NCBI GenBank assembly: GCA_027078415.1
Contig: JALWYX010000034.1
Span: 60,423-124,422, forward strand
DNA from: Thermoanaerobaculia bacterium
Lineage (GTDB): Bacteria; Acidobacteriota; Thermoanaerobaculia; JALWYX01
Direction of reading: 5' to 3'
Length of the DNA: 64,000 nucleotides
A program made the position numbers and the translations under genes. Below, piece after piece: positions 1-36,712 of the stretch. How positions within the stretch are numbered: position 1 is the stretch's first letter; the number at the start of each line of letters is the position of its first letter. A model generated the notes under the pieces. That model was not told the DNA's origin. It worked only from the letters and a program-made list of their open reading frames with translations, and ran no database searches.

Positions 1-816
1 TCTTTATCTGGAGCCACCTTTAGTTCAAATAAAAATATCGCTCCTTTAGCTATAGGAAAAGTACTGGCTGATAAGATGCGAATATCTTTAGATGACGAGA
101 TAACAATTGTAGCAATAGTAAAAGGTACAAAACACAATTTTAAAGTGATATCAGCTAAAGTGGAAAAAATATTCTCAACCGGTCTGTACGAATTTGACTC
201 CGAGTGGATAACTACTTCTTCAACTTTTCTACCTAACGCTGCCTCCAAAATTTACGAGATCCACATCGACTCGCCTACACGCAAGAGCATAGAGAAAATG
301 CAACAATGGATAGATAACAGATTAGGAGATACCTACTTATCTTTTAACTGGTATACACTTAATACTCCCCTGTTCAACGCGTTAGAACTACAAGAAAAAA
401 CGCTATATTTCTTTCTTACCCTTATCATAACGGTAGCTCTTGCAAATTTATCTGCAACTCTACTCACCCTTATAAACAAAAAAATACCAGAGTTTGGCAT
501 ACTTTTAGCTATTGGAATAGATCCAGCTATTATCTATAGTTCGCTAATTTTAACAAATTTGCTATTTACCACTATAGGTATAACAATAGGTACAATAGTA
601 GGAATCGTTAGTACTATCTTAATAGAAAAGTTTGGCCTATTAAATCTACCTGAATCTTTGGCAGATATCTATTTTATAGCTCGTATTCCTATACATAACG
701 AAGTAGACACAGTTCTTCACATATTTGCAATAGCTTTAACGTCAGCTCTAATGTTATCTTCTATTCCAATTATCTATTTAAAACGAATTAAAATAACCCA
801 AATGATATCTTATTAA
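1..816 (+). CDS. FtsX-like ABC transporter permease (LolC/E- or MacB-type), 5'-truncated at the window edge
   Basis: Reading frame is open from base 1 (no stop before the ATG at 76). The C-terminal part has three hydrophobic helices typical of the FtsX domain (LAIGIDPAIIYSSLILTNLLFTTIGITIGTIVGIVS...). Confidence 0.65.
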   Translation, partial: SLSGATFSSNKNIAPLAIGKVLADKMRISLDDEITIVAIVKGTKHNFKVISAKVEKIFSTGLYEFDSEWITTSSTFLPNAASKIYEIHIDSPTRKSIEKMQQWIDNRLGDTYLSFNWYTLNTPLFNALELQEKTLYFFLTLIITVALANLSATLLTLINKKIPEFGILLAIGIDPAIIYSSLILTNLLFTTIGITIGTIVGIVSTILIEKFGLLNLPESLADIYFIARIPIHNEVDTVLHIFAIALTSALMLSSIPIIYLKRIKITQMISY

Positions 817-864
817 ATTATAATTGATTAACTACGATTAAAATTACTTAGCGAGGAGGAATTT

Positions 865-1107
865 ATGGAAAAACCGAAAGTAGCCGGTTTAAAACCAATA
901 GTTATAGAACTAGATGCTGGGGAATATTGGTGGTGTACATGTGGACTTTCCAACAACCAACCTTTCTGTGACGGATCTCATCGTGGAACAGGGTTTACCC
1001 CGTTAAAAATTGAGATTTCAGAGAAGAAAAAGTACGCCTTGTGTACTTGCAAATATACTAATAAACCTCCTTTGTGTGATGGAACGCACAAAAAGTTAAA
1101 GAAATAG
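865..1107 (+). CDS. CDGSH-type iron-sulfur domain protein (two CDGSH motifs)
   Basis: Motifs C-x-C-x...CDGSH and C-x-C-x...CDGTH. A GAGGAGG RBS lies 7 nt upstream of the ATG. Confidence 0.85.
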   Translation: MEKPKVAGLKPIVIELDAGEYWWCTCGLSNNQPFCDGSHRGTGFTPLKIEISEKKKYALCTCKYTNKPPLCDGTHKKLKK

Positions 1108-1113
1108 CAGAGA

Positions 1114-2778
1114 TTATTTATCAGCTAACGCTTTAATCCTCAAAAGTTCAAATTCGTCTCCTTTTTTCCACATAGGGAATGATTTTGAAGTAGCTAAAGA
1201 GTATCCTATATAAAATCCTAATTTAGCATCTTTAACCATTCCTGCAAAGTTCCATTCGTCGTTAAATTCATCGCTAGGCTGGTGGTAATGACTCTTTTCC
1301 CAATGTTCTATCATTTTAACACCCCATCCAGGCTCCCTACCTATAAACTCTGTACCTCCATCTAACCATATAGAAGGTACACCTGCTTTTGCAAAACTAA
1401 ATTGATCGGAGCGATAAAAAAAACCTTTATCAGGAAACTGATCTCCCTTAACCGCTCTCTTTTGAAAAGCTGCATATCCAATAACCAATTTATCTAAATC
1501 TGGTGACTTCCCGTAACCTACTGAGATCAGATCCGCTGTTTCTCCCCATACATTTCCACCATCATAATTTATATTAACAACCATCTTACTAACAGGCACT
1601 GTAGGATTGTGCACATAAAATTTAGATCCCAACAACCCTTGTTCCTCCGCATCTACAATAAGAAAGAGTATAGACCTTTCCAACAGATCTTTAACTTTAC
1701 TAAAAGCTTTAGCTATAGCTATAACTTGAGCAACACCTGTAGCATTATCCATTGCACCGTTATAGATCTTATCACCTTCCTGATCAGGCGTAGATATACC
1801 CAGATGATCGTAATGAGCCGTATATATAACCACTTCATCACTAGTTCCTTTAAGTAAGCCCACTACATTACTACCTTCCACTCTTCTAATTTTTGAACTA
1901 ATTTCAACACTTAATTTAGCCTTTAGTTCTATAGGATAAAAGTTTCTGCTTTTAGAAAGAGCTATAGCCTTCTCTAGAGAGAATCCGCTAGCTTCAAACA
2001 GCTCTTTAGCAGCATCGTAAGTCAACCATCCTTTTACTGCTACACCTTTTTCATCTTCTTTCTGAGGCAATTCAAACTGCTCTCCTGTCCATGAACGTTG
2101 TACAACCTGCCAAGGATAACCAGCAGATTCTGTAGTATGAATTATAAATGCAGCTACTGCACCTAACTCAGCTGCCTTTTCATATTTATAACTCCATCTA
2201 CCGTAATAAAGCCGCCTTTTACCTTCAAAAAGCTGCGGATCCCAGTCTGGATCGTTATTGAGAAATATAAGAACTTTTCCACTTAAATCTTTACCTTTAA
2301 AGTCATCCCAATTATATTCAGGTGCTTGGATACCGTAACCTACAAAAACAACATCTGCATTTTCTACAGCAAGTTTTTCTTTTTGTTTACCAGCAAAAAG
2401 TATAAACTGATCCCAATAGTTAAAAACAACTTTTCTAGTACCTGTAGTAAATTCCAATGTTTTAGGTGAAAAGGTATTAATTCCTACCAAAGTAAATTTT
2501 TGTTCCCACTTTCCCGCATTACCAGGAATAATTCCAACCTCTTTTAGTTTCCTTATTATAAACTCTCTAGCTTTTTTAGATCCTAGACTTCCTGGTGCCC
2601 TTCCCTCCATTTCGTCCGACGAAAGTGTTTTGATAATCTCTTTTAGATATTCAGCAGTAATCGTTTGACTCGCAGCTTTTACCACTTCCAGAGGAGGAGT
2701 ATAAACAAGCGGAGGTTCTGCAGCTTGTAAAACGGTCGTAAACCCTATAACAAAAAGAATTCTACCTTTCATAATCAA
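1114..2778 (-). CDS. M28 family zinc aminopeptidase with PA domain (secreted)
   Basis: N-terminal signal peptide. M28 motifs HYDHLG, NGAMDNATGVA, DAEEQGLLGS and a Zn-ligand HxD pattern. Confidence 0.8.
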   Translation of the reverse strand: MIMKGRILFVIGFTTVLQAAEPPLVYTPPLEVVKAASQTITAEYLKEIIKTLSSDEMEGRAPGSLGSKKAREFIIRKLKEVGIIPGNAGKWEQKFTLVGINTFSPKTLEFTTGTRKVVFNYWDQFILFAGKQKEKLAVENADVVFVGYGIQAPEYNWDDFKGKDLSGKVLIFLNNDPDWDPQLFEGKRRLYYGRWSYKYEKAAELGAVAAFIIHTTESAGYPWQVVQRSWTGEQFELPQKEDEKGVAVKGWLTYDAAKELFEASGFSLEKAIALSKSRNFYPIELKAKLSVEISSKIRRVEGSNVVGLLKGTSDEVVIYTAHYDHLGISTPDQEGDKIYNGAMDNATGVAQVIAIAKAFSKVKDLLERSILFLIVDAEEQGLLGSKFYVHNPTVPVSKMVVNINYDGGNVWGETADLISVGYGKSPDLDKLVIGYAAFQKRAVKGDQFPDKGFFYRSDQFSFAKAGVPSIWLDGGTEFIGREPGWGVKMIEHWEKSHYHQPSDEFNDEWNFAGMVKDAKLGFYIGYSLATSKSFPMWKKGDEFELLRIKALADK

Positions 2779-2889
2779 ACCTCAACTAAATAAGATTTTT
2801 ACATAAAATTTTCCGCCAATACATTAAGGTATACAAAATACAAATTATAATAAATAATAACTCTAAATAAACAAAGGAGGAAATCCGAA

Positions 2890-4629
2890 ATGAAAAGAGT
2901 ATTTTTTGCAGCGTTTCTTTTATCTTTTACCTTTCTTTACGCTCAGAAACAAGGACCTGAGTTATATCCAGAAGTAGAGGAGAAAACTGCACCAAAAGTT
3001 TTAAATCTCTATACCAGTTTAGGGTTAGAACCTGCAATAGTCCAGCAGAATGCTTTTGTATCTGAGAAAGAAAGGGTGGAGGAGATATACAAATGGAACA
3101 AGAAAAACAAACCTATAAAAATAGGGTTAGTAAGATTCTTAAAAAAAGACCTAAGTTTTAAGAAAGGAACCCCATTTTTTACAACCACTTTACCTTCGGG
3201 AGAAAAGGTAGTTACTTTCGGTATAAAGATAGAAAAAGCCAAAAGGTTAAGACTAAGGTTAGACAATGTCAAGGTGCCTAAAGGTACTATATTTACCGCG
3301 TTAAATCCATCGGGAGAAGAAGTAAGAAGCTTTGATACCAGTATAATAGATCATAAAGGAGGTATATGGACTCCCAGTATAGGAGGCGATCAATATATAC
3401 TAGAGATACACCTACCAAAAGAAGCAAATTTGGAAGACGTGGAGTTTACAATTTCTAGGTTCGCGGAGATTATATTCGATAGAGAAAATAATCTGGCTCC
3501 TCGCACGTCGCATACGAACTGTTTACAGGATGCTATGTGCTACGGAAATTCCACCCTTCAAGATATAGATCTGCTACGCGATGCAATAGGATGGTACGAT
3601 TTTGTATCTGGGGGAAGTATATATTACTGTTCTGGAGGGCTCATAAACGACCTCGACACAAGCTCTTATAGACCGCTGTTTCTTACTGCTAACCATTGCA
3701 TATCTACTCAGAGTGAAGCTTCTTCGGCAGAATTTTATTTCAAGGACTATACAGATAGTTGTAACGGTTCCTCAAAACCGTTAGGAAACCTAGACACAGT
3801 TGTAGGATCAACTCTTCTTGAAACAGGTGCTTACAGTGACGGCAAACCGGATTTTACCCTTTTAGAACTCAGTTCACTACCTCCAAACAGCGTTCTACTG
3901 GGTTGGGATGCTTCTACCGGCAATGTGACAGACAATATGAAACTTCACAGAATATCGCATCCTTTTCCAGACAATAATCTACTCCCAGAGCCCCAAACGT
4001 ACAACCAAATAGAATATGACGATTCTCCTTCTGGAACATGCACAGGGGTTCCTACATCTGTTTTCATGTACTCAGAGCCTAAAATAGGTGGCACTTACGG
4101 TGGTTCTTCAGGTGCTCCAGTTGTAAAAAGTGGGCTTATGATAGTAGGGCAATTATTAGGAGCATGTGGACCAACACCAGATACTCCATGCGATATGGAC
4201 GATTACGAAGTAGACGGTAGGTTTTCAGAAACCTATCAATATATCCAAAACCACTTAGCAGGTGGTGGCGGCGGCGGTGGAACATGCACCGCAGATACCT
4301 ATACACACTGTTTCCAAAGCGGTAGATTCCGAGTTACAGTGGATTGGAGAGACCAAAACAACAATACCGGACAAGGAAGAAGGGTAGACCTTACAGACGC
4401 ATCCGGCCTCTTCTGGTTTTTCTCTCCAGACAACATAGAAATGTTAGTAAAAGTATTGGACGGTTGTGCAATAAACAATTACTATTGGGTTCTATTCGCC
4501 GCAACTACAGACCAAGAGTTCACTCTAACCATAACAGATGTAGTTAGAGGCTCAACAAAAACCTACTTTAACCCATTAAAACATATGGCAGATGCTGTAA
4601 TAGACGTACAAGCCTTTAGATGCAATTAG
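2890..4629 (+). CDS. Secreted trypsin-like (S1/chymotrypsin-fold) serine protease with poly-Gly linker and Cys-containing C-terminal domain
   Basis: Signal peptide. Catalytic motifs TANHC (His), DFTLLEL (Asp) and GGSSGAPV (Ser). A GGGGGGG linker precedes a roughly 110-aa Cys-pair domain. AAGGAGG RBS upstream. Confidence 0.7.
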   Translation: MKRVFFAAFLLSFTFLYAQKQGPELYPEVEEKTAPKVLNLYTSLGLEPAIVQQNAFVSEKERVEEIYKWNKKNKPIKIGLVRFLKKDLSFKKGTPFFTTTLPSGEKVVTFGIKIEKAKRLRLRLDNVKVPKGTIFTALNPSGEEVRSFDTSIIDHKGGIWTPSIGGDQYILEIHLPKEANLEDVEFTISRFAEIIFDRENNLAPRTSHTNCLQDAMCYGNSTLQDIDLLRDAIGWYDFVSGGSIYYCSGGLINDLDTSSYRPLFLTANHCISTQSEASSAEFYFKDYTDSCNGSSKPLGNLDTVVGSTLLETGAYSDGKPDFTLLELSSLPPNSVLLGWDASTGNVTDNMKLHRISHPFPDNNLLPEPQTYNQIEYDDSPSGTCTGVPTSVFMYSEPKIGGTYGGSSGAPVVKSGLMIVGQLLGACGPTPDTPCDMDDYEVDGRFSETYQYIQNHLAGGGGGGGTCTADTYTHCFQSGRFRVTVDWRDQNNNTGQGRRVDLTDASGLFWFFSPDNIEMLVKVLDGCAINNYYWVLFAATTDQEFTLTITDVVRGSTKTYFNPLKHMADAVIDVQAFRCN

Positions 4630-4637
4630 ACCTAACT

Positions 4638-4680
4638 AAGGTGTTAGCCACGGAATTTACTTGGCTAACACCTTTTTTAT
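4638..4680 (+). terminator. Rho-independent terminator downstream of the protease gene
   Basis: Perfect 13-bp inverted repeat AAGGTGTTAGCCA / TGGCTAACACCTT with an 11-nt loop, followed by TTTTTT. Confidence 0.8.
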
Positions 4681-5495
4681 TACTAAATATTTCTACAACA
4701 GTTGAGTTAAAAAACTCCTTAAAATCTATACGCCTTAACCAGCAACTTTAAGAAGAAAACTAACCTTATCCACAAAACAACTACCAGAAAGTCAAAACAA
4801 CTTCTCAAAACTCTACAAATATAGACCTTTTACCGCTATATTTCACGTCTTTTGTTTGCCAAAATATAACTCTAAGCAGATACTATAAACGTTTTCAAAG
4901 GTAACAAACCAATATTATTAGAAGCTCCTTTCTTCTATGTATTACACGTAAAGATACGCCTTAATCTTAGAAACGTTTTTGTTTACTTTACATCTTTGAA
5001 ACTTACCATTAACCACATTAACCTTCCAAATTATCCTTAGATGAAACCATTAAAATTATCCAAATAGTTCATATCTAACAAGTCACCAACACACTAAAGA
5101 TAACATTTACTGAAAAAGCAGAGTATTTATAAATATAAACTGAGAATGTTTGAGATTTTTTAGAAAACAAGAGCAACACAATTTTTAAGTGCTAGAGAAG
5201 GTAACACTTCAACCAGAGGTAATACAAAACACACAATTACTCTATACTATTTCAAAAATATAAGTGAGTTAAAACTGCAAATTACCAATGTAGAAATATC
5301 TATTAGCTTAGATCAGACTTCAGTATATAAAGTGTACCCGTATAATAAAAATTTTTAAAATATATGGTGCTACTAATAACTTTATAACACATTATTAAGT
5401 CTTTTCTACCAACCCTTACTGTAATGTAGATTTTAGTTTCTTAAACTAATCCTAGCGACCTTTGAAGCTATATAAGTTTTATGCCAAAAATCTTT

Positions 5496-6506
5496 TTATT
5501 CTTTGTTCCATATAAAAGGTCCCACTTTTTCTTGCAAAGCTATTTCTTCTCGAGCAGCTTCTATATAAAGGAAATCTTTGAAAATTGTTTCTATCTTTGG
5601 GAAACGTTCTGTTATTTTTTCTTTTATCTCTACAGGTTCTGGAAACTGTTTCAACCCTTGTATCTCTTCAAGAAGTTGTAAAAAAAACGTTCTTCTACTT
5701 TCATTTGCCAACATAAAACTCACAAAAAATCCAGCTTGCGAATAAAGAAGATCTCTTTTTTCGGACATATCAAAACCGATCCAATCAAGCATAAGCATGT
5801 CATTTAAGCTCAACTCTCCTTTTTCCATCTCTCTTTTTAAAACAAAGATTGCTGCCAAGGGACCTTCCACAATAAAATCATTTTTTCCCGTTTTCCTAAC
5901 GATTCCCGGCACGCCGTTTATATTTCTAAACTTCGCTAGCATATATTGGGAAAAATCCACAGCTATACCCTCTTCTAGCCAAGGAGGAAGTTTGCGAACA
6001 AAAATTGTACTATTTAAGTAATGAGCAAATTCATGAGCCAAGGTAAGAAATATCATATCTAGTTTCTTATCAGCCGCATTAACGGCGATGATACTACCTG
6101 TTGTAAAACCTTCCATATTTGTATGTCTACAACTTTTGCACACTAGATTTGCAAAAGAGCGAAATTTTTCTCTATCCGCGAAAATGAAAACTTTCATGTT
6201 TTTATCGGGAACGTTAAAACCGTACCTTTTAAAATACTTAACCCGGAAGTCAGCTAAACCAGCACTCAGTATAGTCAGTTTATCGTTAGACAGATCACTC
6301 CAAGTCTCAAAACCAGCTACTTGACTCTTTTGGTGGTCTACAAAATTTTTCCCCACCTCGAGCAATTTTTCTTTTTCAGAAAAACGTCCATCTATTGTAG
6401 TAGACATGTAACTGAAGAAAAAGCTAGAATCCAATTTCTTCTCAGGAGCATTAAAGTAGAATATTCCTATAAGTAAACAAGCGATTACAATGAATACTCT
6501 AATCAT
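5496..6506 (-). CDS. Putative zinc metallopeptidase-like lipoprotein (HEXXH motif), function unknown
   Basis: Lipoprotein-type signal MIRVFIVIACLLIG. HEFAHY zinc-binding motif. The ORF-track extension to 6797 has junk-like composition and overlaps the divergent gene, so the start is set at the MIRVF methionine. Confidence 0.55.
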   Translation of the reverse strand: MIRVFIVIACLLIGIFYFNAPEKKLDSSFFFSYMSTTIDGRFSEKEKLLEVGKNFVDHQKSQVAGFETWSDLSNDKLTILSAGLADFRVKYFKRYGFNVPDKNMKVFIFADREKFRSFANLVCKSCRHTNMEGFTTGSIIAVNAADKKLDMIFLTLAHEFAHYLNSTIFVRKLPPWLEEGIAVDFSQYMLAKFRNINGVPGIVRKTGKNDFIVEGPLAAIFVLKREMEKGELSLNDMLMLDWIGFDMSEKRDLLYSQAGFFVSFMLANESRRTFFLQLLEEIQGLKQFPEPVEIKEKITERFPKIETIFKDFLYIEAAREEIALQEKVGPFIWNKE

Positions 6507-6521
6507 ATATACTATTTTAAA

Positions 6522-8129
6522 ATGTCGGTAGGAGTGTTGACTACGGAAAAATACGATTTTTACCAGAAGCCACCATCGATAGCAGATCCTATAGAGAGCG
6601 ATCCTTTTCTTAAAGAAATAGTATCTTTCCTTATCCCTCCAGAAATAATGGCTGAAATATGGGACGAGATTAAAGAGTTTGCAGAAAGGGTAAAAGAGAC
6701 AGAAAAGTGGGCAAGAGAGGCTGAAATCAATCAGCCAAAGTTGATCCACTACGATCCATGGGGTAAGAGAGTAGACAGGGTCGAATACTGCGAACAATGG
6801 TATAAGTTAAAGGCTTTTTCAGCTGAAGAAGAGCTAGTAAGAGCAGCTTATTTAGGTAGATTTGGAAAGTATAACAGGGTATACCAGAGTGTAAAACTGT
6901 ACCTGTTTCACCCCCGTTCCGCGTTTTATACCTGTCCGTTAGCTATGACAGACGGTGCAGCGGCACTCATATACACTGTGAACGATAGTAAGTTAATAGA
7001 AGAAGTAATACCACACCTGTTAAGCAACGATCCTAAGTCATTCTGGACCTCAGGTCAATGGATGACGGAAAAGACTGGAGGATCTGACGTTAGGAGTAGC
7101 AAAAGTGTAGCGATAGGTGACGGTAAAAGATGGAAATTGTATGGAATAAAATGGTTCACATCTGCTATAGAGTCTGAAGTAGCTTTCACGTTAGCAACCG
7201 TTGAAGGAAGCGATAAACTATCTTTATTTTTTGTAAAAACGAAGAAAGAAGACGGTTCATGGAACAATTTAAAGATTTTACGTTTAAAAGACAAACTAGG
7301 AACTAGGGCATTAGCAACAGCTGAAGTAGAGTTACTAGGGACTGAAGCTCTATTGGTAGGTACTCCCGATAGAGGAATAGCGCATATTGCTACAATACTC
7401 AATGTAACAAGGCTTTATAACGCTATAGGTTCTGTCGCTACCATGAGATACATAACTTCTCTTGCTGTAGATTATTCGTTAAAAAGAAAAGCGTTTGGTA
7501 AGTATATAATAGAGCACCCCTTGCATAGAAACACGCTTGCAGAGATGCAAGCACGTACAGTAGGAACAACTCTATTTACTTTCTGGTTAGTAAAACTGTT
7601 TGGAAATAGCAGTAGTTTGCATTTGGCACGTCTTCTTACACCATTAGCTAAACTATTTACGGCCAAAGAGGCAATTCAAGTAGTTTCTGAAGGTGTTGAA
7701 GCTATAGGTGGAGCAGGGTATATAGAGGATACCGATATTCCTCGATTTTACAGAGACACGCAAGTATTTTCTATATGGGAAGGAACAACTAACGTTTTGC
7801 TTCTAGACTTTCTTAGAGCTATGAAAAAAGAACCTGGAACTCTAGAGCAACTGTACAGTATCCTCTCCAACTCCATTGAATGTGTTAACGTTAAAGTAAC
7901 GTTACAAAACACTTTTGATAACATTAAGCTTCTACTCCAAGAGAAAATAACCCCAGTTTACCTTAAACATCTTTCATTTAAAGTAGCGGAACTGGTAATT
8001 TTTCACTTGATAGGTGCTATAAGTAACAGATCACCACGGTGGAAAGGTATAGAAGAATATTGGAAATTTAGGATTCTTAACCCTACACCTACTGCAAGAA
8101 TATTGAAATCTTTAGAAGATTTAGTATGA
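6522..8129 (+). CDS. AidB-like acyl-CoA dehydrogenase family protein
   Basis: Long N-terminal AidB/ACAD10-11-type region, then an ACAD core ending in the IWEGTTNVL-type C-terminal motif. Stop overlaps the next start (ATGA). Confidence 0.75.
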   Translation: MSVGVLTTEKYDFYQKPPSIADPIESDPFLKEIVSFLIPPEIMAEIWDEIKEFAERVKETEKWAREAEINQPKLIHYDPWGKRVDRVEYCEQWYKLKAFSAEEELVRAAYLGRFGKYNRVYQSVKLYLFHPRSAFYTCPLAMTDGAAALIYTVNDSKLIEEVIPHLLSNDPKSFWTSGQWMTEKTGGSDVRSSKSVAIGDGKRWKLYGIKWFTSAIESEVAFTLATVEGSDKLSLFFVKTKKEDGSWNNLKILRLKDKLGTRALATAEVELLGTEALLVGTPDRGIAHIATILNVTRLYNAIGSVATMRYITSLAVDYSLKRKAFGKYIIEHPLHRNTLAEMQARTVGTTLFTFWLVKLFGNSSSLHLARLLTPLAKLFTAKEAIQVVSEGVEAIGGAGYIEDTDIPRFYRDTQVFSIWEGTTNVLLLDFLRAMKKEPGTLEQLYSILSNSIECVNVKVTLQNTFDNIKLLLQEKITPVYLKHLSFKVAELVIFHLIGAISNRSPRWKGIEEYWKFRILNPTPTARILKSLEDLV

Positions 8130-9835
8130 ATACAGCTAAAATAAACAACAATTTAGAAAAGTATCCAGAATTAACTGTAACTGCAGTATTAGTAGGATAT
8201 TTAATAGGAGCTTTATTAGCTGTCAGCATTGGATACGCTAGTTTAATTCTCGGTTTTTCTATAGAAGGGTCAGAATTAGCTGCTATTCTCGGTTTTGGAA
8301 TACTACGTGGGCTACTAGGAAGAAAAAGCATTATAGAAAACAATATAAACCAGACTGTTGCTAGTGCTGTAAATGGGGCATCTGCTGGAATGATGTTCTC
8401 AGTACCGGCTATATTTATCCTAGGATTTAGTGAAAAAGATTTTTCTCTTCCTATTATGGTTTTAGGATGTATAGCTGGCGGGATTATGGGTATAGCGTTT
8501 ATAATACCTCTTCGCAAGCAGATGATAGATTTTGAAAGGCTAGCATTTCCTGGCGGAATAGCAGTAGCAACTATTTTAAAATCTCCCGGAGCAGGAATAA
8601 AAAAAGCGTATCTGCTATTAGGTGGAGCTTTAGTGTCTGCGTTAGTACATGCGATAGTACTTTACAACGGTTATACAAACTTTCCTCTAGGAGAAAAAAT
8701 AGGGTTACCTTGGTATATGAATGTAACTTTCTACATTTCTCTCCTTACCATAGGAGTAGCATTTTTAGCAGGTAAAGGAGGATTCTTTTTTATAATAGGA
8801 GGTTACACCTGTTATTTTATTCTCGCGCCTATTCTCAATCTAAGAGGCAAGTTAGCTAATCTTTCATCTGCAAGTGATCTACAACACCACCTTTTTAGAC
8901 CTATAGGTATAGGTATGTTAATAGGTGGAGCTTTAATGGGTATCGTCCTAGCACTTCCTCTTATAATAGGTGCAATACGTTCAATGTACCAAGCTAGCAA
9001 ATCGGGTAAAAGAGTAGCTCAAGATGAACTACCTATAGGTTTTCTAGGAGTAGGAATTATAGGGGCATTTGTAGTGCTCCTATATATGTCCTTGTATTCC
9101 GCACAAAACATGACCCTTGGTAGAGGAGTTCTTGTAGCGATACTCGGAACTATTTGGATATGGGTTGCAGGAGTTATCCTATCTGAGTGTATAGGACGTA
9201 CCAACTGGTCTCCCCTTTCTGGAATGACACTTATAGGAGTTACGCTTGCAGTTATGCTTACGTCGGGACTAGGCAACAAGGAATCGATTATAGCATCTAT
9301 TATGGTAGGAGCTGCAATGTGCGTAGCGATGTCACAAGCTACCGACCTCATGTTAGATCTAAAAACAGGTTATCTAGTAGGGGCCATCCCTCGTAAACAA
9401 CAAATAGCACAATTTCTAGGATCAGCACTAGGTCCAATCATAGTTATAACTTTAATAGTTGTACTCCATAAAGCTTATACCTTAGGCTCTCCCAGGCTTC
9501 CAGCTCCACAGGGACAAGCACTAGCATCTATGATAGAAGGGATATTAAACGAAGGTATACCAAAAGATAAATATATAGCAGGCGCGGGGATAGGTGCTCT
9601 CCTTTCAGCTACAGGGATAGGTGGTCTGGGAATTCTTGTAGGATTAGGTTTCTATCTGCCTTTCAATATAGTTCTAACATACACAATAGGCACTGTGTTA
9701 CGCATATGGAGTGATAAAAAAATGGGTAAAAACTGGAGCGATAACGTAGGGGTACCTATAGCGGCAGGAGCAATTGTAGGAGAAGCGTTGATAGGAGTAG
9801 GATTTGCAATATACCACGTTATAAAAGCCCTATGA
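8126..9835 (+). CDS. OPT family oligopeptide transporter
   Basis: About 570-aa polytopic membrane protein with 14-16 predicted TM helices and Gly-rich helices typical of the bacterial OPT family. Translationally coupled to neighbours on both sides. Confidence 0.75.
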   Translation: MNTAKINNNLEKYPELTVTAVLVGYLIGALLAVSIGYASLILGFSIEGSELAAILGFGILRGLLGRKSIIENNINQTVASAVNGASAGMMFSVPAIFILGFSEKDFSLPIMVLGCIAGGIMGIAFIIPLRKQMIDFERLAFPGGIAVATILKSPGAGIKKAYLLLGGALVSALVHAIVLYNGYTNFPLGEKIGLPWYMNVTFYISLLTIGVAFLAGKGGFFFIIGGYTCYFILAPILNLRGKLANLSSASDLQHHLFRPIGIGMLIGGALMGIVLALPLIIGAIRSMYQASKSGKRVAQDELPIGFLGVGIIGAFVVLLYMSLYSAQNMTLGRGVLVAILGTIWIWVAGVILSECIGRTNWSPLSGMTLIGVTLAVMLTSGLGNKESIIASIMVGAAMCVAMSQATDLMLDLKTGYLVGAIPRKQQIAQFLGSALGPIIVITLIVVLHKAYTLGSPRLPAPQGQALASMIEGILNEGIPKDKYIAGAGIGALLSATGIGGLGILVGLGFYLPFNIVLTYTIGTVLRIWSDKKMGKNWSDNVGVPIAAGAIVGEALIGVGFAIYHVIKAL

Positions 9836-10347
9836 AAACAAAAATAGGAATTATTATGGTAACAATTTCCTTTCTAGGTTCCTCATACGTTGCAGTAGAA
9901 TCTGAAAAGTTAGAGTGGGGGAAATGGATAACTCTTATAACAGTAGGTATAATAGGAATCTACTTGATCAAAAGAAGTTCAAAAGAAGAGATTTTAAAGG
10001 TATTAGAAGAAGACTTTTCTTTAGAAGATCTCAAGAAAGTATTGAAAAAAGCTACAAAAGAGGCGGAAAATATCCACTCTGTAGATCCCAAAAACTACCC
10101 CAAATTAATAGAAGAGAACCTCTCTCCTTTACTTTCCGAGTTCGCTTCTCACCGAGAACTGATAAAAGCAGAATTAGGAATCAAGAAATTTGGCGAAATT
10201 TTTTCCCATTTCGCTGCTGGAGAACGGTATGCAAATAGGGCATGGTCAGCAGCGGTAGATGAATACTACGAAGAAGCCAAACGTGCCCTGCAACTCTCAT
10301 TATCTGAACTTAAAGAAACACTTACCCTTCTCGAAACAGTAAACTGA
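9832..10347 (+). CDS. Hypothetical membrane-anchored protein (last gene of the AidB-OPT operon)
   Basis: Two N-terminal TM helices followed by a charged helical domain. ATGA start/stop overlap with the OPT gene. Confidence 0.5.
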   Translation: MKTKIGIIMVTISFLGSSYVAVESEKLEWGKWITLITVGIIGIYLIKRSSKEEILKVLEEDFSLEDLKKVLKKATKEAENIHSVDPKNYPKLIEENLSPLLSEFASHRELIKAELGIKKFGEIFSHFAAGERYANRAWSAAVDEYYEEAKRALQLSLSELKETLTLLETVN

Positions 10348-10445
10348 AAACTCCTCATAAGATGTGACGTTGCATCCAAACAATTCAACCCCTCCTCTCT
10401 AACAAAAAACAATTTTTATCCTTTCCAAAAAGTAGCACAAAAAAA

Positions 10446-10724
10446 TCAATTTTCCTTGGCAGCTGTTGTATTTGCCTTTTTCTCCTCAGTCTTTTTATCT
10501 TCTTTTTTATCAGAATTTTCCTCCGTTTTACCCTTCTTAGAATATTTGTCAGAATAATCTGTTACATACCAACCGCTACCTTTAAACTGTATAGCAGGTG
10601 GTGAAAGTACTTTACTCATTTCACCGCCACACTTTTCACATTTAGTAACAGGAGCATCATTGACAGATTGAATAAGTTCAACGCTTTCGCCGCACTCTTT
10701 ACACTTGTATTCATAGATAGGCAT
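10446..10724 (-). CDS. FmdB-family zinc-ribbon protein with K/E-rich tail
   Basis: Starts MPIYEYKCKECG with paired CxxC...CxxC. A GAAAGGAGG RBS lies just upstream. The ORF-track extension into the tRNA is spurious. Confidence 0.75.
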   Translation of the reverse strand: MPIYEYKCKECGESVELIQSVNDAPVTKCEKCGGEMSKVLSPPAIQFKGSGWYVTDYSDKYSKKGKTEENSDKKEDKKTEEKKANTTAAKEN

Positions 10725-10744
10725 CTCATACCCTCCTTTCCTAA

Positions 10745-10836
10745 TGGCGGAAGCGGATGGGAATCGAACCCACCTTCTTCTCTCGAAGAACATCGGTTTT
10801 GAAGACCGAGAGAGGCACCAGCCCCCTACCGCTTCC
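10745..10836 (-). tRNA. selC: tRNA-Sec (selenocysteine tRNA, anticodon UCA)
   Basis: Reverse complement reads GGAAGCGG-TA-GGGGGC-TGGT-GCCTCT-C-TCGGT-CTTCAAA-ACCGA-TGTTCTTCGAGAGAAGAAGG-TGGGTTCGATTCCCA-T-CCGCTTCC-G-CCA. This gives an 8-bp acceptor stem, a 6-bp D-stem with 4-nt loop, a UCA anticodon in a 7-nt loop, a long variable arm and encoded CCA; 92 nt in total. Confidence 0.85.
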
Positions 10837-11209
10837 TTCAGTTAAAAGTAACAGATAAATATAATAAAAAATTCCATAGCATCTATCCATTAAATTCTGA
10901 TAGTTTTTATAAAGAACTATCCTCATCTTCCTTCATCACAAATCAGTACGTAAAGCAATCGTTCAAAACTGTGAGAAATTATAGGCAATTTCCAATCCCC
11001 CTAAATAACGCAATGTTTTTTGCTTGCAAATCACACATCTAACCTTACTTTGATAACACCTGCTGTATAGATGCACCAGTTTATATCAAATTTTTACAGA
11101 TTTTATTTTTAAGTCACCCCAAGCTATTTAGTCCAAACACACAACAAATACACTCTTGTGTTCCAGCAAAAAACAATTTCATCTAAAAAAACAACGAGTC
11201 TAACAATTA

Positions 11210-12370
11210 CTAACCTGAATTGCGCTTATTGGCCATCTTATTGTTCCAATATATCACGTACCAAGCGAGAATAACGGGTGCAAATAAATTAGGTAACACA
11301 CCAATTACCTCCAATAGAGGAGGCAAAGTAGCAAATTTAAAGGAAGTTATACCTTCTACGAGAAGAGAAGCAGCAGTAGCTAGGGATAAAAGGGTAAACT
11401 CATATTTGAAACTTAGACCTTTTGTAAAATATATATTCCACGCCATAACTATAAGGGGTAAAGCTAGTAGATATGTATGTAACCAAGTTACAGGTGTTAC
11501 AAAAAGTGAAGAAGCTAAAGATATAGCAACTACAGAGTGTATATCTTTGGCAAATTTAGTTGAAATTATAAAAACAAATATAAATGAAATAAAAAGCACA
11601 GGTGTCATAAGGTAATGCAAATCTAGTGCATGTAAAATGCGATGAATTGAAGCACTTCCATCTGCTATATGGCTTTTTATTCGCTCTAATTTATAAAACC
11701 AGCTATCAAAATAAGGAAAAGGCACAGTCAGTAAAGCAGCTACAATTGAAGAGACTACGGAAACGATCACTCCATGTCTTGTAAAAGTTGCAAAAAGAAC
11801 TATCATAATAGGCACAACAAGAGGTTTTACAGCTATCGATAAACCCAATAGAATACCACAAATAAAAGGGTATTTTTTATGGAAGAATAGTACAACTATA
11901 CTAGCTCCAGCTGCAAAGAGTGTCAAATTTTGAAATTTTACCCCCATAGATACCGGAGGAGAAAGAAGTAGCAGAAGGGTGATATCTCGCCATCTTTGAG
12001 TAGCGTCACCTTTCGCCCATGCAGCGGTAAACCAACCGAATAAGGCTAAACCTACCATATTCAAAAATCTGTTAACAACAAGAACCCCAACTTCACCTCC
12101 TACCTTAAAAATTGCAGCTAATACAAACGCCAGCAGAGGAGGATACAAGTATCCCTTCTTACCTCTTCCTCCAACGTAAGGATCTTCACCTGCAGCTACT
12201 CTTTCAGCAGCCCATGCATAATGATATTCGTCTACATTTGGATAGGTTGAAAGTAAAGTATATTCGTACCAAGCAAACAGTAAAACACCAAATAAACTCA
12301 AGATAGCTAGGAAATGTACTTTAAGAGGAAAAGCTACCCATTGCGAGTAAGAATTATCAAGGGGCGTCAT
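11210..12370 (-). CDS. Polytopic membrane protein, possible GT-C/DUF2029-like glycosyltransferase
   Basis: About 10 TM helices. GEDPY...YPP motif in a loop, reminiscent of membrane glycosyltransferases. Weak assignment. Confidence 0.45.
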   Translation of the reverse strand: MTPLDNSYSQWVAFPLKVHFLAILSLFGVLLFAWYEYTLLSTYPNVDEYHYAWAAERVAAGEDPYVGGRGKKGYLYPPLLAFVLAAIFKVGGEVGVLVVNRFLNMVGLALFGWFTAAWAKGDATQRWRDITLLLLLSPPVSMGVKFQNLTLFAAGASIVVLFFHKKYPFICGILLGLSIAVKPLVVPIMIVLFATFTRHGVIVSVVSSIVAALLTVPFPYFDSWFYKLERIKSHIADGSASIHRILHALDLHYLMTPVLFISFIFVFIISTKFAKDIHSVVAISLASSLFVTPVTWLHTYLLALPLIVMAWNIYFTKGLSFKYEFTLLSLATAASLLVEGITSFKFATLPPLLEVIGVLPNLFAPVILAWYVIYWNNKMANKRNSG

Positions 12371-13047
12371 GTTACTCTTTTAAGTAATTTCTCTGATTTT
12401 ATAAGTTTGCTATACGCAACACCTGTATGATACCAATGAAGTAAAAATGCTTCTCGTATAGCTCTCCATACGTACTTAATCCCTTTCTCATCACTGTTGT
12501 AAGCTGGATACAAGAGACAATTCAAACCAAACCCTCTAGCAAAATCGCGTGCTCTAGCTAAATGCAAAGAATCACTTACTATAGCCAACTTCTTAAAAGA
12601 AAGTTTTCTTATTTTGTCTCTAGCATTTTTTAAATTCTCCAAAGTATGCCTCGATTTATCCTCGATCATTATATCGTTCTCTTTTACACCGCAATCAATT
12701 AAATATCTCTTACCAGCCTCAGCCTCACTTATAGTAGCATTACCAGTAAGTCCTCCACAGATAAATATCTTTTTCGCAACTCCTATCGAATATAGAAAAA
12801 AAGCAAAATCGAGCCGAGCTTTAAACACCCTAGAAATCTTATTATTCTCATCGAGAACGCGCCCTAAAACTATCACCACATCTACTTCTTCTATTTCATC
12901 ACCTTTAACACTTTTTAACACCCTCATTAGACACAAGAAAAAAGAGATTCCCATTCCCCCAGATATTACTAGTGAATTTAAAAAAAATGAAGTAATAGCT
13001 CCAGGACCTAAAAACTCAATAATATTCTCGCTTCTGTGCCGTGGCAT
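12367..13047 (-). CDS. DUF218/YdcF (SanA/ElyC-like) domain protein
   Basis: VIVLG ... ICGG.TG...SEAEA..YL...GV....I.E..S..T.EN pattern of DUF218. 4-bp overlap with the downstream gene. Confidence 0.7.
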   Translation of the reverse strand: MPRHRSENIIEFLGPGAITSFFLNSLVISGGMGISFFLCLMRVLKSVKGDEIEEVDVVIVLGRVLDENNKISRVFKARLDFAFFLYSIGVAKKIFICGGLTGNATISEAEAGKRYLIDCGVKENDIMIEDKSRHTLENLKNARDKIRKLSFKKLAIVSDSLHLARARDFARGFGLNCLLYPAYNSDEKGIKYVWRAIREAFLLHWYHTGVAYSKLIKSEKLLKRVT

Positions 13048-13435
13048 TATCGCTCTTTGATCTTTTATAAAGATTCAATAATATCAAAAACAAACCAGCT
13101 AAAACTAAAATCTCTGCCAAGAGAACAATAATCGAAAGCGCATAATTTAAATTCAACAGTAGAAGATTAGACGATCTAAAAAACAACACCCCTACAAACA
13201 AATTAACTATAGCGATAGCAATAACAACCTTTATATCTTTTTCTTTTCTCAACTTAGAAACTTCAAGAATACCGCCCACCAAACCAACAAAAACTAAAAT
13301 ACCTCCAACTAAAACAGAAAGTGTAAAATCTGCTTTCAAAAGGTTATAAAGCACAAAAAACAATATTACTCCGAAAAAAATAGCCGCAAATACAGATATA
13401 AAAATATCTCTCTCCTTCATCCCTTTTTCTCCCAT
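13016..13435 (-). CDS. Hypothetical small membrane protein
   Basis: Four hydrophobic helices, no recognisable motif. The start may be the internal Met at 13420. Confidence 0.45.
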   Translation of the reverse strand: MGEKGMKERDIFISVFAAIFFGVILFFVLYNLLKADFTLSVLVGGILVFVGLVGGILEVSKLRKEKDIKVVIAIAIVNLFVGVLFFRSSNLLLLNLNYALSIIVLLAEILVLAGLFLILLNLYKRSKSDNATAQKREYY

Positions 13436-14267
13436 TTAAGCTACACCCTTATAGCTGTTTATATCTTAAAATATAAACAAAGCAATAACATCCAGAAACT
13501 AAAAAAACGGTCCAACTTTCAAACCCTACAACTGTTCCATTTCTCAATAAACTTATAAAAAGCAAAACTCAAATCAAAATTTCAAACTCCAAAAAAGCGC
13601 CAAAACAGAATCTACCTGAAGAAGATATAAGTAATTCTATTTATTAAAAAGCAATCTTACATATCCTACCAGTTGTGGTTTAACATAAGCACTTAACAAC
13701 TCTGTTCTACAGAAGACAATACCAAAGGAAACCACTACAACACTTTATCATCTTATATGTCAACAGTTACAAACATTAGTAATAGTTTCCCATTTCAAAA
13801 GCATTACTTTTACTTAAAAAAGATCTTAATCGTTTCTTAAGATAAAGGAAAAGCACCTAAAAGTTACAAACAGAACTTTGTGAAAATATATAACACCGTT
13901 AAGAGTTAAAAAGCTGAATTACATCCTTGAGCTTGCTCTTGATTATACCTTTAACACAACAGGCATACACTATACGGAAAAAACCTAATACCTCGACTCT
14001 ATCATTCTCTTTCCAACAGAGCTAACAAACTATCATTCAATATAATAACTGTCCTTAAAAAATTACAGAAGCCTATTCTGTATTTACTCGATTGCTCAAA
14101 GTCTAATTTTATTTTTTGGCTGTAACGTTTATTTAGATACGGTAGATGGTAAATTACAGTTTCTAGAGAACACCTTACAAAGTACAACTCTATATAACCA
14201 ATTTTGTTTTATCGATGGTTATCAACCCTAGCTCTCTAATTTATACACCTATTATCTTTGAGATATT

Positions 14268-27916: not shown

Positions 27917-28863
27917 TAGTTACCCACAATTCAGCTCCAGATATTGCTAAAGCTCTACAACATCTATATTCGCAAACTCTAAAGCCCAAAACTACTGTAA
28001 TTGTGGATTCGGGCAGTAAAGATAACACTATACCTATTGTGAAAACTCTTCAATATACCAACTTGAAGGTAATAGAACTACAGAATAATGTAGGTTTTGC
28101 TTCGGCACTTAATATAGGAATAGAAAATACAGATTCTCCATGGATACTTTCTTTGAATCCTGATACTCGTATGGAGATACTATACAGCGAGAATATACTA
28201 AATGCGCTTAGCTATTATAGATACGACAGAATCGCATCTGGTACTGGTAGACTAGTTAGATTGGAACAAACCAACATCTTAGACTCTTGCGGAATATACA
28301 TAAATCCAACTTGGCGTCACTTCGACAGAGGTAGCAATAAGGTTATATCTCACTCTTATATACAACCTGGATTTGTATTCGGTGCCACTGGTGCAGCCAG
28401 TTTTTACAATAGAGAAGCGTTAGAAGACGTACAGCTTGAAAAGAGTAAATTTGACCCTTTGTTTCATTCATACAGAGAAGACGCTGAAATAGCCTTTAGG
28501 TTGCAACAGAGAGGGTGGAAAACTGTATATATTCCCTACGCTGTATGTTACCACCGCAGGCAAGTACTACCTGAAAAAAGATCTAAATTATCAAAACATA
28601 TAAACTATCACTCCTTAAAAAACAGGTACCTTCTACGCTTATATCACCAAACCTTTACAAACCTGATTTTAACTTTGCCTATAATCTTACCGCGTGAAAT
28701 AGGGATTGTACTATATTTAATATTCAAAGAGCGCAACAGCTTAAAAGCTTATAGATGGTTATGGAACAACAGAAAGTTGATAATAGAGAGAAGAAAAGAG
28801 ATAAAGAGCAAAAAGCTAATTTCCTTTAACAAATGGTTTTTCAGACGCATATTACCTACTTAA
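27892..28863 (+). CDS. Glycosyltransferase family 2
   Basis: YSVVIVTHNSAPDI...VIVDSGSKDNT...DxD-type region. Confidence 0.75.
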   Translation: MERDYSVVIVTHNSAPDIAKALQHLYSQTLKPKTTVIVDSGSKDNTIPIVKTLQYTNLKVIELQNNVGFASALNIGIENTDSPWILSLNPDTRMEILYSENILNALSYYRYDRIASGTGRLVRLEQTNILDSCGIYINPTWRHFDRGSNKVISHSYIQPGFVFGATGAASFYNREALEDVQLEKSKFDPLFHSYREDAEIAFRLQQRGWKTVYIPYAVCYHRRQVLPEKRSKLSKHINYHSLKNRYLLRLYHQTFTNLILTLPIILPREIGIVLYLIFKERNSLKAYRWLWNNRKLIIERRKEIKSKKLISFNKWFFRRILPT

Positions 28864-30198
28864 AACATTGCTATTAACAACTCTTTTCTTAAAATTGTTA
28901 TTTATTGCAGTCTGCTTATTAAGATTTTCAAACATTTCGTTACACTTAGAAGAAAGCACTTCACACAAGTTTCTATTCTCATCAAAATCGTTTCTCAAAT
29001 CGTAAAGTTCCTTCTCTAAACCACCTATAAATTTCCAGTTTCCTACAATCAGAGAAGCACTATAGTTACTTACGCTTCTAGACTCTGCTAATATAAAACG
29101 ATCACTATCAGAAAAACTTACAATAGTTGGGATTAAAGAGATTCCTTGAAAAACTATCTCTTTTTTATCTATTCCTAAAATATCTAACAAAGTAGGTGTA
29201 ACATCTATAAGAGAAACATTTGTAGGTATCTTTTTAGTTCCAACTTTAGGTATATAGATAAACAGAGGAACATGTAACGTTTCATTGTAAAGTTGAGAAT
29301 GTAAAAAGTTACCATGTTCACCAAATTCTTCACCATGGTCCGAAGTAAAAACTACTACCGTTTTAGGAAATTTATCGATAACTTCTTTAAGTAAAGGCGC
29401 AATTTTCTCAAGGGTATATCTGACTAGAGCATCGTATAAAGAAATAAGTCTGCGTACATCAAGTTCGTTAGACAGATTAAATTGGTTCCAAAACCTATCT
29501 CGTATCTCAGGAAAACTGATAATCGATGAATTCAATTTTCTGAATTCTTTCCAGCTTACCACGAAATTGTTTTTATCTTTCCAAAAGATATCTAACCCAT
29601 CCTCCGGTAAAAGGTAAGGATCGTGCGGACCGTAAGTATGGAAAAAAAGAAAAAAAGGTTCCTTTGCATCGTTTAACCATGCTAAAGCTTCTTTTACATA
29701 ACCCCATCTATCGTAACGTTTAGAAGGTTGTCCTTTATTCAGATAAAAGTCAAAACCTCTGTTAAAGCCAAAAATGCCTGATACGTTTCCTCCGCCGTGA
29801 AATCCTACCGTAGTATACCCTGCATCTTTAAGTATCTCTGCTATAGTGGGTAGGTTACCGTTTATAACTGTTTGTTTACGAAAGTAACGTGTTATATTTC
29901 TAACTCCATGTATTTCAGGATAAACACCTGTAAACAAAGACGCGTGGGAAGGAGCTGTAAAGGGTGATGGTGCAAAAGCTCTTTCGAAAATTACACTTTT
30001 TTTTACAAAAAAATCTATCACAGAAGAAGTATCTCTAAAGTAGCCATATTGCGACATATGCTTCGCTGCAAGGGTATCTACAGATACTATAACTACATTG
30101 CATCTTCTACATTCTATTTCCTCGGAACTTCTACAATTCCACAAAAGAAAACTAAAGATAACCAAGAACTTCCAGCTCTTTTTTAAGATCATCGTCAA
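28852..30198 (-). CDS. Sulfatase-family (alkaline-phosphatase superfamily) lipoprotein S1, non-canonical nucleophile
   Basis: VIVSVDTLAAKH metal-site motif. FTAPSHASLFTGVYPEIHG in place of CxPxRxxxLxTGxYPxxHG. TSDHGEEFGEHG metal motif. Signal peptide. Confidence 0.75.
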   Translation of the reverse strand: MTMILKKSWKFLVIFSFLLWNCRSSEEIECRRCNVVIVSVDTLAAKHMSQYGYFRDTSSVIDFFVKKSVIFERAFAPSPFTAPSHASLFTGVYPEIHGVRNITRYFRKQTVINGNLPTIAEILKDAGYTTVGFHGGGNVSGIFGFNRGFDFYLNKGQPSKRYDRWGYVKEALAWLNDAKEPFFLFFHTYGPHDPYLLPEDGLDIFWKDKNNFVVSWKEFRKLNSSIISFPEIRDRFWNQFNLSNELDVRRLISLYDALVRYTLEKIAPLLKEVIDKFPKTVVVFTSDHGEEFGEHGNFLHSQLYNETLHVPLFIYIPKVGTKKIPTNVSLIDVTPTLLDILGIDKKEIVFQGISLIPTIVSFSDSDRFILAESRSVSNYSASLIVGNWKFIGGLEKELYDLRNDFDENRNLCEVLSSKCNEMFENLNKQTAINNNFKKRVVNSNVLSR

Positions 30199-31588
30199 TC
30201 TCTAAAACTTTTCCTTTACCACCACCGCTAACGCTACTCAATATCTCTTTTAGCATCTCTTGCAGTAAATCAACAATCCCCGGGTGTATAGAACTTACAT
30301 CTTTTTTTTCTTTAGGGTCGGTTTTTAGGTTGAAAAGTAGGCGTTTATCCTCACCCCTAAGGATAAACTTAAACAAGCTTTTGTCCACTACAGCTACAGA
30401 ATCTGGACCGTAAGCAGGTGATTCTATGAAGACTAACTCTTTTTTTTCGCAAAACCCCTCCTCTAAAAAATTCGCACCTCTCCATCTACCAACTTTAGGC
30501 AGGTTCAAAATTGCGGCCAATGTAGGCATTATATCTATGTGACTTACTATGCAGTTTACATTTCTTCTGTTTATACCTTTCCCACCAATCACTATAACAC
30601 TACGGACAAGCTCTTCGAACATAGTATGCCCGTGACCTATACCGTAAATATTCCGCGGATCGTCTTTCCAACGCCACTGTAGATCTACATGATCCCAAAA
30701 TTCTTCTCCATGGTCTGTAGTAATTAAAAAGATAAAATTATCAGCTATTTTACTTCTCAAAAATAGGAAGAGACGCCTTATTTCACTGTCTACATACCTA
30801 AGTGTAGCATCGTAAAGCTTTATTTTATTACTCTTGTATTCGATAAACTCTTGGTCCGCAAAGTTAAAAATCTCACCAAACCTCCAACCAGCATACTTTT
30901 TGGCGTCATCTATTGCAAAAAGCTTCACAAACTCCTGAGGTGGTTCCAAAGGATGGTGTGGATCCATATACTGAATGTACAGGAAAAACGGTTGCTCAAC
31001 CTTATCAACAGCATCTATAGCAAGATCTGTGAGTTTCCTAGCGGAGACTCTTTTAGAAAAGTGAAAATCCGTAGCAGGAGCAAAATTTTTATTCAAATAG
31101 GGATTAGCGGAAAAAAATAGTGAACTGTAACCGTATTTTTTAAAATACTCGGTTGCTAAAACCACCTCTTCCAAAGGTTGTCTACTCTTATCTTTTATAC
31201 CCAACCAGCGCATCTTCCCTCTCTCACCAACACCTGCTCCATGTTCCGAAGGATACAGAGAAGATAGTATAGAAGCAACAGACGGAACTGTCCAATTAGA
31301 ATGGGAATATACACGTTCAACTATCACAGAATTGGCGGCGATAAAATCTATATTGGGAGTCGTATCTCTCATATAGCCCATAAAAGAAAAATGATCGTAC
31401 CTAGCAGTATCTATTACAACAACTATTACATTTGAAGGTCCCTCTTTCTCTTTACTACTTTCGGAGGGTTTGTGGCAGGATAGTAAAAAAAATGGAAAAA
31501 ATAAATAGAAAAGGAGGTGGAAAAATCCACCTCCTTTCCTAAGAACTTTTCTAGATCTTTTACGGCATTCTATAAGCCTCAAATTCAT
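30152..31588 (-). CDS. Sulfatase-family lipoprotein S2, non-canonical nucleophile
   Basis: Lipobox LLSC. VVVIDTARYDHF. WTVPSVASILSSLYPSEHG. TTDHGEEFWDH. C-terminal tail ...LKKELEVLGYL. Confidence 0.75.
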   Translation of the reverse strand: MNLRLIECRKRSRKVLRKGGGFFHLLFYLFFPFFLLSCHKPSESSKEKEGPSNVIVVVIDTARYDHFSFMGYMRDTTPNIDFIAANSVIVERVYSHSNWTVPSVASILSSLYPSEHGAGVGERGKMRWLGIKDKSRQPLEEVVLATEYFKKYGYSSLFFSANPYLNKNFAPATDFHFSKRVSARKLTDLAIDAVDKVEQPFFLYIQYMDPHHPLEPPQEFVKLFAIDDAKKYAGWRFGEIFNFADQEFIEYKSNKIKLYDATLRYVDSEIRRLFLFLRSKIADNFIFLITTDHGEEFWDHVDLQWRWKDDPRNIYGIGHGHTMFEELVRSVIVIGGKGINRRNVNCIVSHIDIMPTLAAILNLPKVGRWRGANFLEEGFCEKKELVFIESPAYGPDSVAVVDKSLFKFILRGEDKRLLFNLKTDPKEKKDVSSIHPGIVDLLQEMLKEILSSVSGGGKGKVLEIDDDLKKELEVLGYL

Positions 31589-32201
31589 CCAGATAGTACG
31601 TTACAGCTCCATTGACCTGTGCTGCTGGATTTTGTACAAGGCCAAATCTAAAGTAATCTATGTCGAATGCGCTCGTTGCTAAATTGTTTTTACAAACCTC
31701 TTTATAACTTGGGGTAAGCCTACGCACACATACAAATCCATCTCCATTTCCAGCTCTCCACTCTACTTCAAGCTGATGAGTCTTTGGTGAATTATCAAAA
31801 GACAACCAAACACCACCTACAAAAGTAAAATTACCACTATTCTGTCTAGCCCAAACGTTAAATCTATACGTTCTGTCACCGTCATTTTCTAGATCATGCC
31901 TAAGAAAACCCACTAAAAATACAGCAGGTGCTACATCACGTGCAAAATAAAGTATTCTTAAAGAGCTATCATCTTTTATATTAGTAGCATTTTCAGCACG
32001 TAACATAAATCTAACCTTTACGTGCGTTTCGTTGTTAGGAGCATTTGTTTCCACATACGCTTTATCAGAGGAAGTCCCATCCAGATTAATCTCCAAACCA
32101 TAATTGCCTTCCAACGCAGAGGTATTCGTAACACTTAAAGTGTTTTGCGCCCCTAGAGGCAAAGTAAACAACGCTATCATACCTCCTACCTTTTTCCACA
32201 T
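31560..32201 (-). CDS. Hypothetical secreted protein embedded in the hydrolase cluster
   Basis: Signal peptide MIALFTLPLGAQN. Beta-rich composition. No motif recognised. Confidence 0.5.
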   Translation of the reverse strand: MWKKVGGMIALFTLPLGAQNTLSVTNTSALEGNYGLEINLDGTSSDKAYVETNAPNNETHVKVRFMLRAENATNIKDDSSLRILYFARDVAPAVFLVGFLRHDLENDGDRTYRFNVWARQNSGNFTFVGGVWLSFDNSPKTHQLEVEWRAGNGDGFVCVRRLTPSYKEVCKNNLATSAFDIDYFRFGLVQNPAAQVNGAVTYYLDEFEAYRMP

Positions 32202-32266
32202 AACCTTACTTACCTCCTCTTTTTAGGTACTTTCACATTATAATACATAACTCTTCACCAGCGCAA

Positions 32267-36488: not shown

Positions 36489-36712
36489 AAAATATTACTA
36501 CAACACCAAATACCCGGCAACCAAGTAAGTATTAAAGGCAATTATAATTCTAAAACCGGATTTTAAAAATAAGCTTCGCTTACCAATACAACTAAAAAAC
36601 ACGCAAGATGACTTAAAAACAATAATAATGGTACACTTAAAAATCAAAATAGAGCAATTATTTGCCCTATCTTAAAACATTCTAAATATCCCTTCCCAGT
36701 ATTAGCCAACAG

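Follow-up and report, generated by a model that had tools for sequence, protein, structure and literature searches.

A canonical selenocysteine tRNA gene (selC), closely followed by an FmdB-type zinc-ribbon gene, in a Thermoanaerobaculia bacterium

A tRNA-Sec gene (selC) lies at positions 10745-10836 on the minus strand of the window, the 64,000-nucleotide stretch of DNA that was analysed here. ARAGORN reports it as tRNA-SeC with anticodon tca, the sole tRNA in the 64-kb window, and returned exactly the coordinates given in the initial annotation, which had left the strand unstated. A scan with 4227 Rfam families at their gathering thresholds gave a single match in the window, to the tRNA-Sec family RF01852 (cmscan, 10836->10749, 77.3 bits, E = 3.7e-14). 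This match spans model positions 1-91 of 91, is not truncated and scores about 30 bits over the RF01852 gathering score of 47. Within each clan (CL00001 here), only the best overlapping match is retained in the cmscan output; thus, the tRNA-Sec model beat the generic tRNA model at this locus. A long-arm tRNA for Ser, Leu or Tyr had been named as the alternative to be checked, and both ARAGORN and Rfam call Sec. Such class II elongator tRNAs were rejected on structure as well, because they have a 7/5 branch, a D stem of 3-4 bp and a large D loop, whereas in selC the branch is of the 8/5 form, the D stem has 6 bp and the D loop 4 nt, and the Rfam clan comparison favours tRNA-Sec.

The gene is 92 nt long, counting the discriminator G73 (position 89) and the encoded CCA that follows it (10748-10745), and its RNA sequence is GGAAGCGGUAGGGGGCUGGUGCCUCUCUCGGUCUUCAAAACCGAUGUUCUUCGAGAGAAGAAGGUGGGUUCGAUUCCCAUCCGCUUCCGCCA. 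The fold was computed as the unconstrained ViennaRNA minimum-free-energy structure of the 92 nt, with 200 dinucleotide shuffles as the control. A free energy of -40.9 kcal/mol was obtained, compared with -30.3 +/- 3.3 for the shuffles (z = -3.2), none of which (0/200) folds as well. The acceptor stem consists of 8 bp, all Watson-Crick (GGAAGCGG/CCGCUUCC), starting with G1:C72, and is joined to the D stem by a 2-nt linker (UA). The D stem has 6 bp (GGGGGC/GCCUCU), including two G-U pairs, and carries a 4-nt loop, UGGU, with G18 and G19. One unpaired C separates it from the anticodon stem of 5 bp, which bears the 7-nt loop CUUCAAA with the anticodon UCA at window positions 10802->10800. The variable arm is long, with a 6-bp stem and a GAGA loop. 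The T stem is formed by 5 bp (G-U, U-A, G-C, G-C and G-C) with the loop UUCGAUU and stacks straight onto the acceptor stem; in the unconstrained fold, these two make up an acceptor/T branch of 13 bp in the bacterial 8/5 form. The 8-bp acceptor stem, 6-bp D stem with 4-nt loop, UCA anticodon and long variable arm, which had been described earlier as the Sec-specific features of the cloverleaf, were all reproduced by the minimum-free-energy fold. According to the account given in PMC7609411, the 6-bp/4-nt D arm is a determinant for SelA, the variable arm of tRNA-Sec is used by seryl-tRNA synthetase (SerRS) and the 8-bp acceptor stem is a determinant for SelB binding, with EF-Tu binding being approximately 100-fold weaker. 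The locus at 10745-10836 is a canonical bacterial selC; its sequence is new, but genes of this kind are thoroughly known.

Downstream of selC and on the same strand lies a gene (10446..10724, minus strand) for a 92-aa FmdB-type zinc-ribbon protein, which was identified by Pfam (Zn_ribbon_8, E = 2.1e-15) and is also called at 92 aa in an ENA assembly. The protein reads MPIYEYKCKECG...CEKCG, followed by a Lys/Glu-rich tail. It starts with the ATG at 10724; a spacer of 20 nt separates this codon from the CCA of selC upstream (10724-10748, minus strand) and contains a Shine-Dalgarno sequence, AAGGAGG. This start, 20 nt past the tRNA CCA, is the one oddity of the locus. The spacer leaves no room for a separate promoter. 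No terminator-like site was found between selC and the zinc-ribbon gene, the sole match of the scan being the anticodon arm itself. The 20-nt spacing and the lack of a terminator make co-transcription likely, and the zinc-ribbon gene is thus probably expressed from the same transcript as selC.

The junction was also described by a degenerate pattern, consisting of the T loop and 3' acceptor of tRNA-Sec, a gap of at most 33 nt and a start reading M-P-x-Y-E-Y/F. This pattern matched once in the window and never in shuffles of the window; in the contigs of 185,579 species genomes and in JGI metagenome contigs, it gave no matches. Within the limits of the pattern, the lack of a match elsewhere gives no support to a conserved functional link between selC and fmdB. 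By this measure, the tight selC-fmdB layout appears to be idiosyncratic and not a conserved module. It is very unlikely that the layout is functional in this deep-branching host, with a zinc ribbon made from the tRNA-Sec transcript acting in selenium or Sec metabolism or regulation.

An AT-rich spacer of 373 bp separates selC from its upstream neighbour, a gene for a GT87-like membrane glycosyltransferase (11210..12370, minus strand; Pfam GT87, E = 4.9e-6). A promoter scan found a candidate sigma-70-like promoter, TGGATA-17 nt-TATTAT, at 10861..10889 on the minus strand (10889->10861). The candidate stops 24 nt short of the mature tRNA 5' end and is the sole promoter-like site in 10300-11300. 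Shuffles of the promoter region contained 2.7 +/- 1.8 such sites versus the one observed; since shuffling yields more promoter-like sites than were seen, it is the position of the site, and not statistics, that argues for this candidate.

Converging on selC and the zinc-ribbon gene is a plus-strand operon (6522..10347; Pfam and ORF coordinates), which is context here and not part of the Sec system. It encodes an AidB-like acyl-CoA dehydrogenase (6522-8129; Pfam AidB_N and Acyl-CoA_dh_1/M), an OPT transporter (8126-9835; Pfam OPT, E = 9e-56) and a 171-aa protein with no assigned function (9832-10347; ORF coordinates), and the starts and stops of the three genes overlap by 4 nt. The FmdB zinc-ribbon gene and the AidB-OPT operon had both been named as neighbours of the tRNA gene in the initial annotation, and Pfam scans of about 55 ORFs in the window bear this out, having found Zn_ribbon_8/FmdB, AidB_N together with acyl-CoA dehydrogenase domains, and OPT. 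A genomic island inserted at selC, as occurs in E. coli, was considered and rejected; no second copy of the tRNA 3' end is present in the window with up to three mismatches, and no integrase is encoded among the neighbours.

The same population was found in the ENA metagenome assembly ERZ23491050, in which scaffolds 477, 1122 and 1292 are 100% identical to the window. The Logan assembly of SRR14510437 is likewise 100% identical. ENA scaffold_477 covers window positions 446-13488 at 100% identity, and selC is identical in it. Flanking sequence was recovered for 9.1 kb past the left end and 9.5 kb past the right end of the window, and the total read was about 83.6 kb. The left flank contains genes for a radical SAM protein, a seryl-tRNA synthetase, an S8 peptidase, a sulfatase-TPR protein, MazG and FtsX, and the right flank contains genes for NMT1, SBP_bac_5, RmuC, amidohydrolase, M20, LplA and penicillin amidase proteins. 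The end of scaffold 477 and the start of scaffold 1122 meet at 13457-13488 with a 32-bp overlap, and the Logan contig ends at 13221. This junction borders some 780 bp of AT-rich sequence without genes (13489-14267). A chimeric contig at 13457-13488 was rejected, as the tetranucleotide composition of the selC-bearing left part correlates with the rest (0.978-0.980) as closely as the other parts do with one another (0.980-0.982). Because the composition matches on both sides, the junction looks like an assembly-graph break, perhaps due to a repeat or to strain variation, and not a chimera. Exact-protein look-ups of the OPT transporter, the AidB-like protein and three others returned no record. 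The OPT and AidB-like proteins are nevertheless called in the identical scaffold_477 with the same lengths as in the window (569 and 535 aa), and a negative look-up is thus no proof of absence.

A 34-nt exact core of the tRNA, comprising the D arm and the anticodon arm, had no matches in 185,579 species genomes and none in JGI metagenome contigs. Similarly, the GT87-like protein had no homologue but itself at E <= 1e-10 among 5.8 billion protein clusters, and the best non-self match of RelA (58984-61269) in the same clusters was 45% identical, with Acidobacteriota among the names listed for RelA. For the OPT transporter, proteins 67-71% identical occur in many phyla, so it is uninformative on relatives. 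Names among the best OPT and RelA matches include Gemmatimonadota, Marinimicrobia/Fidelibacterota, Myxococcota and Acidobacteriota. By these comparisons, the host belongs to a poorly sampled and very isolated lineage. As to the other contents of the window, the regions 28852-38161 and 47424-54046 contain a dense cluster of six sulfatase-family genes, with an M32 carboxypeptidase gene and an unassigned ORF interspersed, and, farther along, three alkaline-phosphatase-superfamily (Phosphodiest) genes. The sulfatase and phosphatase genes suggest that the host may degrade sulfated polymers. The 866 bp at 4630-5495 contain no ORF of at least 100 aa, no ENA gene call and no Rfam match at gathering thresholds.

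The genes next to selC had been said not to be selA, selB or selD, and this holds throughout the 83.6 kb or so of window and flanks. No SelA, SelB-wing, AIRS (SelD) or related domain was found by Pfam among the approximately 55 ORFs of the window, nor was selA, selB or selD present among the called genes of the 9.1-kb left and 9.5-kb right flanks. A six-frame scan reading through TGA revealed no convincing TGA-split gene with substantial coding on both sides in the window or flanks; the read-through candidates either added a short tail past an ordinary stop or overlapped a neighbouring gene. The sel genes and the selenoprotein genes presumably lie elsewhere in the genome, as the initial annotation had proposed. 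The sole redoxin-fold protein in the window, a membrane-anchored redoxin/AhpC-TSA-fold protein (55912-56799, minus strand), is a Cys form with the motif WCSPC. Redoxin-fold families of this sort include Sec-containing members elsewhere. A seryl-tRNA synthetase gene (L007 954-2225) is located in the left flank, about 8 kb before the window begins and about 17.5 kb from selC. Since SerRS is universal, the closeness of this gene to selC is probably coincidental and gives no evidence either way.

Stop codon usage in the window bears on how a tRNA with the anticodon UCA could operate in this host. Among 49 genes, 25 end in TAA, 14 in TGA and 10 in TAG. As UGA terminates 14 of the 49, the UCA tRNA cannot decode UGA codons in general, and its action must depend on context, in the manner of SelB and SECIS. 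In addition, tRNA-Sec is described in PMC5330540 as specific to genomes that contain selenoproteins. The intact identity elements of selC, taken with this published specificity, indicate that the host very probably makes selenoproteins, and on the same grounds, it is reasonable to attribute UGA-to-Sec decoding to it.

The gene was observed directly, as were its structure, identity elements and genomic context. It is very likely a functional, canonical selC that serves the recoding of UGA to Sec, using SerRS, SelA, SelD and SelB encoded elsewhere. Expression, charging, conversion and delivery of the tRNA are presumed, and so are the machinery and its targets; the steps that follow were derived from the established pathway. 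Transcription would proceed from the AT-rich upstream spacer along the minus strand. RNase P would trim the 5' end of the transcript, and 3' trimming would halt at the encoded CCA. Seryl-tRNA synthetase, which reads the long variable arm and G73, would then load serine. Next, SelA would recognize the D arm by its 6-bp stem and 4-nt loop and turn the serine into selenocysteine with selenophosphate supplied by SelD. Finally, SelB, and not EF-Tu, would recognize the 8-bp acceptor stem inside the 13-bp acceptor/T branch and deliver the Sec-tRNA to UGA codons trailed by a SECIS hairpin. Counted against this reading are the lack of sel genes and of a TGA-split gene in about 83.6 kb, a C-U mismatch in the anticodon stem and the lack of close relatives.

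The same lack of any Sec machinery or selenoprotein gene in the 83.6 kb around selC would fit an orphan or relic, in which the tRNA gene is intact, a working selA/selB/selD set has been lost or was never present, and no Sec is inserted. Such a gene may be kept for some non-Sec purpose. Also consistent with an orphan is the location of selC outside a selABC-type operon, the arrangement that PMC5330540 gives as usual for genomes with an atypical 7/5 tRNA-Sec. However, 83.6 kb is only part of the genome, and selC is unlinked in E. coli too. The identity elements are all intact, the Rfam score lies 30 bits above threshold, and the reported restriction of tRNA-Sec to selenoprotein-containing genomes (PMC5330540) also speaks against an orphan, which is considered unlikely.

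A different job for a Sec-like tRNA, as an allo-tRNA, a selC*-type tRNA(Cys) or a Ser-inserting UGA suppressor, is highly improbable, even though a UCA anticodon and a long variable arm are described for some of these (PMC5389517; PMC7609411). Allo-tRNAs, as characterized in PMC5389517, have acceptor/T branches of 12 bp in the 8/4 or 9/3 form, whereas the branch of selC has 13 bp in the 8/5 form, and this identity was rejected. The selC* tRNA(Cys) of Desulfobacterales has A1:U72 and adjoins selB*/cysS* in the description given by PMC7609411. The gene found here has G1:C72 and G73, with GT87-like and FmdB genes and not selB*/cysS* as its neighbours, and a selC* tRNA(Cys) of Deltaproteobacteria was likewise rejected. 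Since UGA is commonly used as a stop in this host, an unrestricted suppressor would be harmful. Nothing speaks for a chance cloverleaf or an artefact of assembly, and this reading is effectively refuted by the Rfam E-value of 3.7e-14, by the failure of all 200 shuffles to fold as well, by the identical selC in the independent ENA assembly and by a composition that fits the rest of the contig. A working selC in a host with its Sec machinery encoded elsewhere is thus the reading preferred here.

Because standard gene callers truncate selenoprotein genes at the Sec UGA, a genome that carries selC merits a selenoprotein screen. The main use of this find is therefore to flag that the selenoprotein genes of the host need dedicated annotation. 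It also places a Sec tRNA in a poorly sampled bacterial lineage. Every feature of the tRNA that was tested is canonical, and knowledge of the Sec system as such is therefore not advanced.

Among known arrangements, the thrU-tyrU-glyT-thrT-tufB operon of E. coli is a tRNA-mRNA co-transcript. As in that operon, a tRNA gene is followed here by a protein gene on the same strand with no terminator between them. In contrast to it, the tRNA gene here is selC, the gene after it encodes a small zinc ribbon of the FmdB type, and the co-transcription proposed for the locus was deduced from the 20-nt spacing only. The selABC-type operon is presented in PMC5330540 as the usual arrangement in genomes with an atypical 7/5 tRNA-Sec, including Clostridiales and Gammaproteobacteria. 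Both that tRNA-Sec and the one described here have a UCA anticodon, but the present selC has the 8/5 form and sits between GT87-like and FmdB genes, with selA and selB not adjoining. With the allo-tRNAs and the selC* tRNA(Cys), selC has in common a long acceptor stem and a long variable arm, together with the UCA anticodon that is given for some of them (PMC5389517; PMC7609411).

The closest comparison is with selC of E. coli, the founding member of RF01852, whose reference sequence is 100% identical to the annotated tRNA-Sec of E. coli genomes. In both genes, the 8-bp acceptor stem begins GGAAG, the linker is 2 nt long, the D stem has 6 bp, the 4-nt D loop contains GG and the anticodon loop is the identical CUUCAAA. 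They also share the 8/5 architecture, G73, the encoded CCA and a T stem of 5 bp that opens with a G-U pair, and in E. coli, as here, selC is unlinked to the other sel genes. The present gene is 92 nt long, compared with 95 nt in E. coli, and its variable stem has 6 bp in place of 8 bp. Its anticodon stem has 5 bp plus the C-U mismatch, which is flagged in the cmscan alignment, versus 6 bp in E. coli, and its last acceptor pair is G-C where that of E. coli is C-G. Unlike E. coli selC, it is followed by a protein gene that begins 20 nt past the CCA. These differences are minor, and the gene shares with E. coli selC the whole architecture of a canonical bacterial tRNA-Sec.
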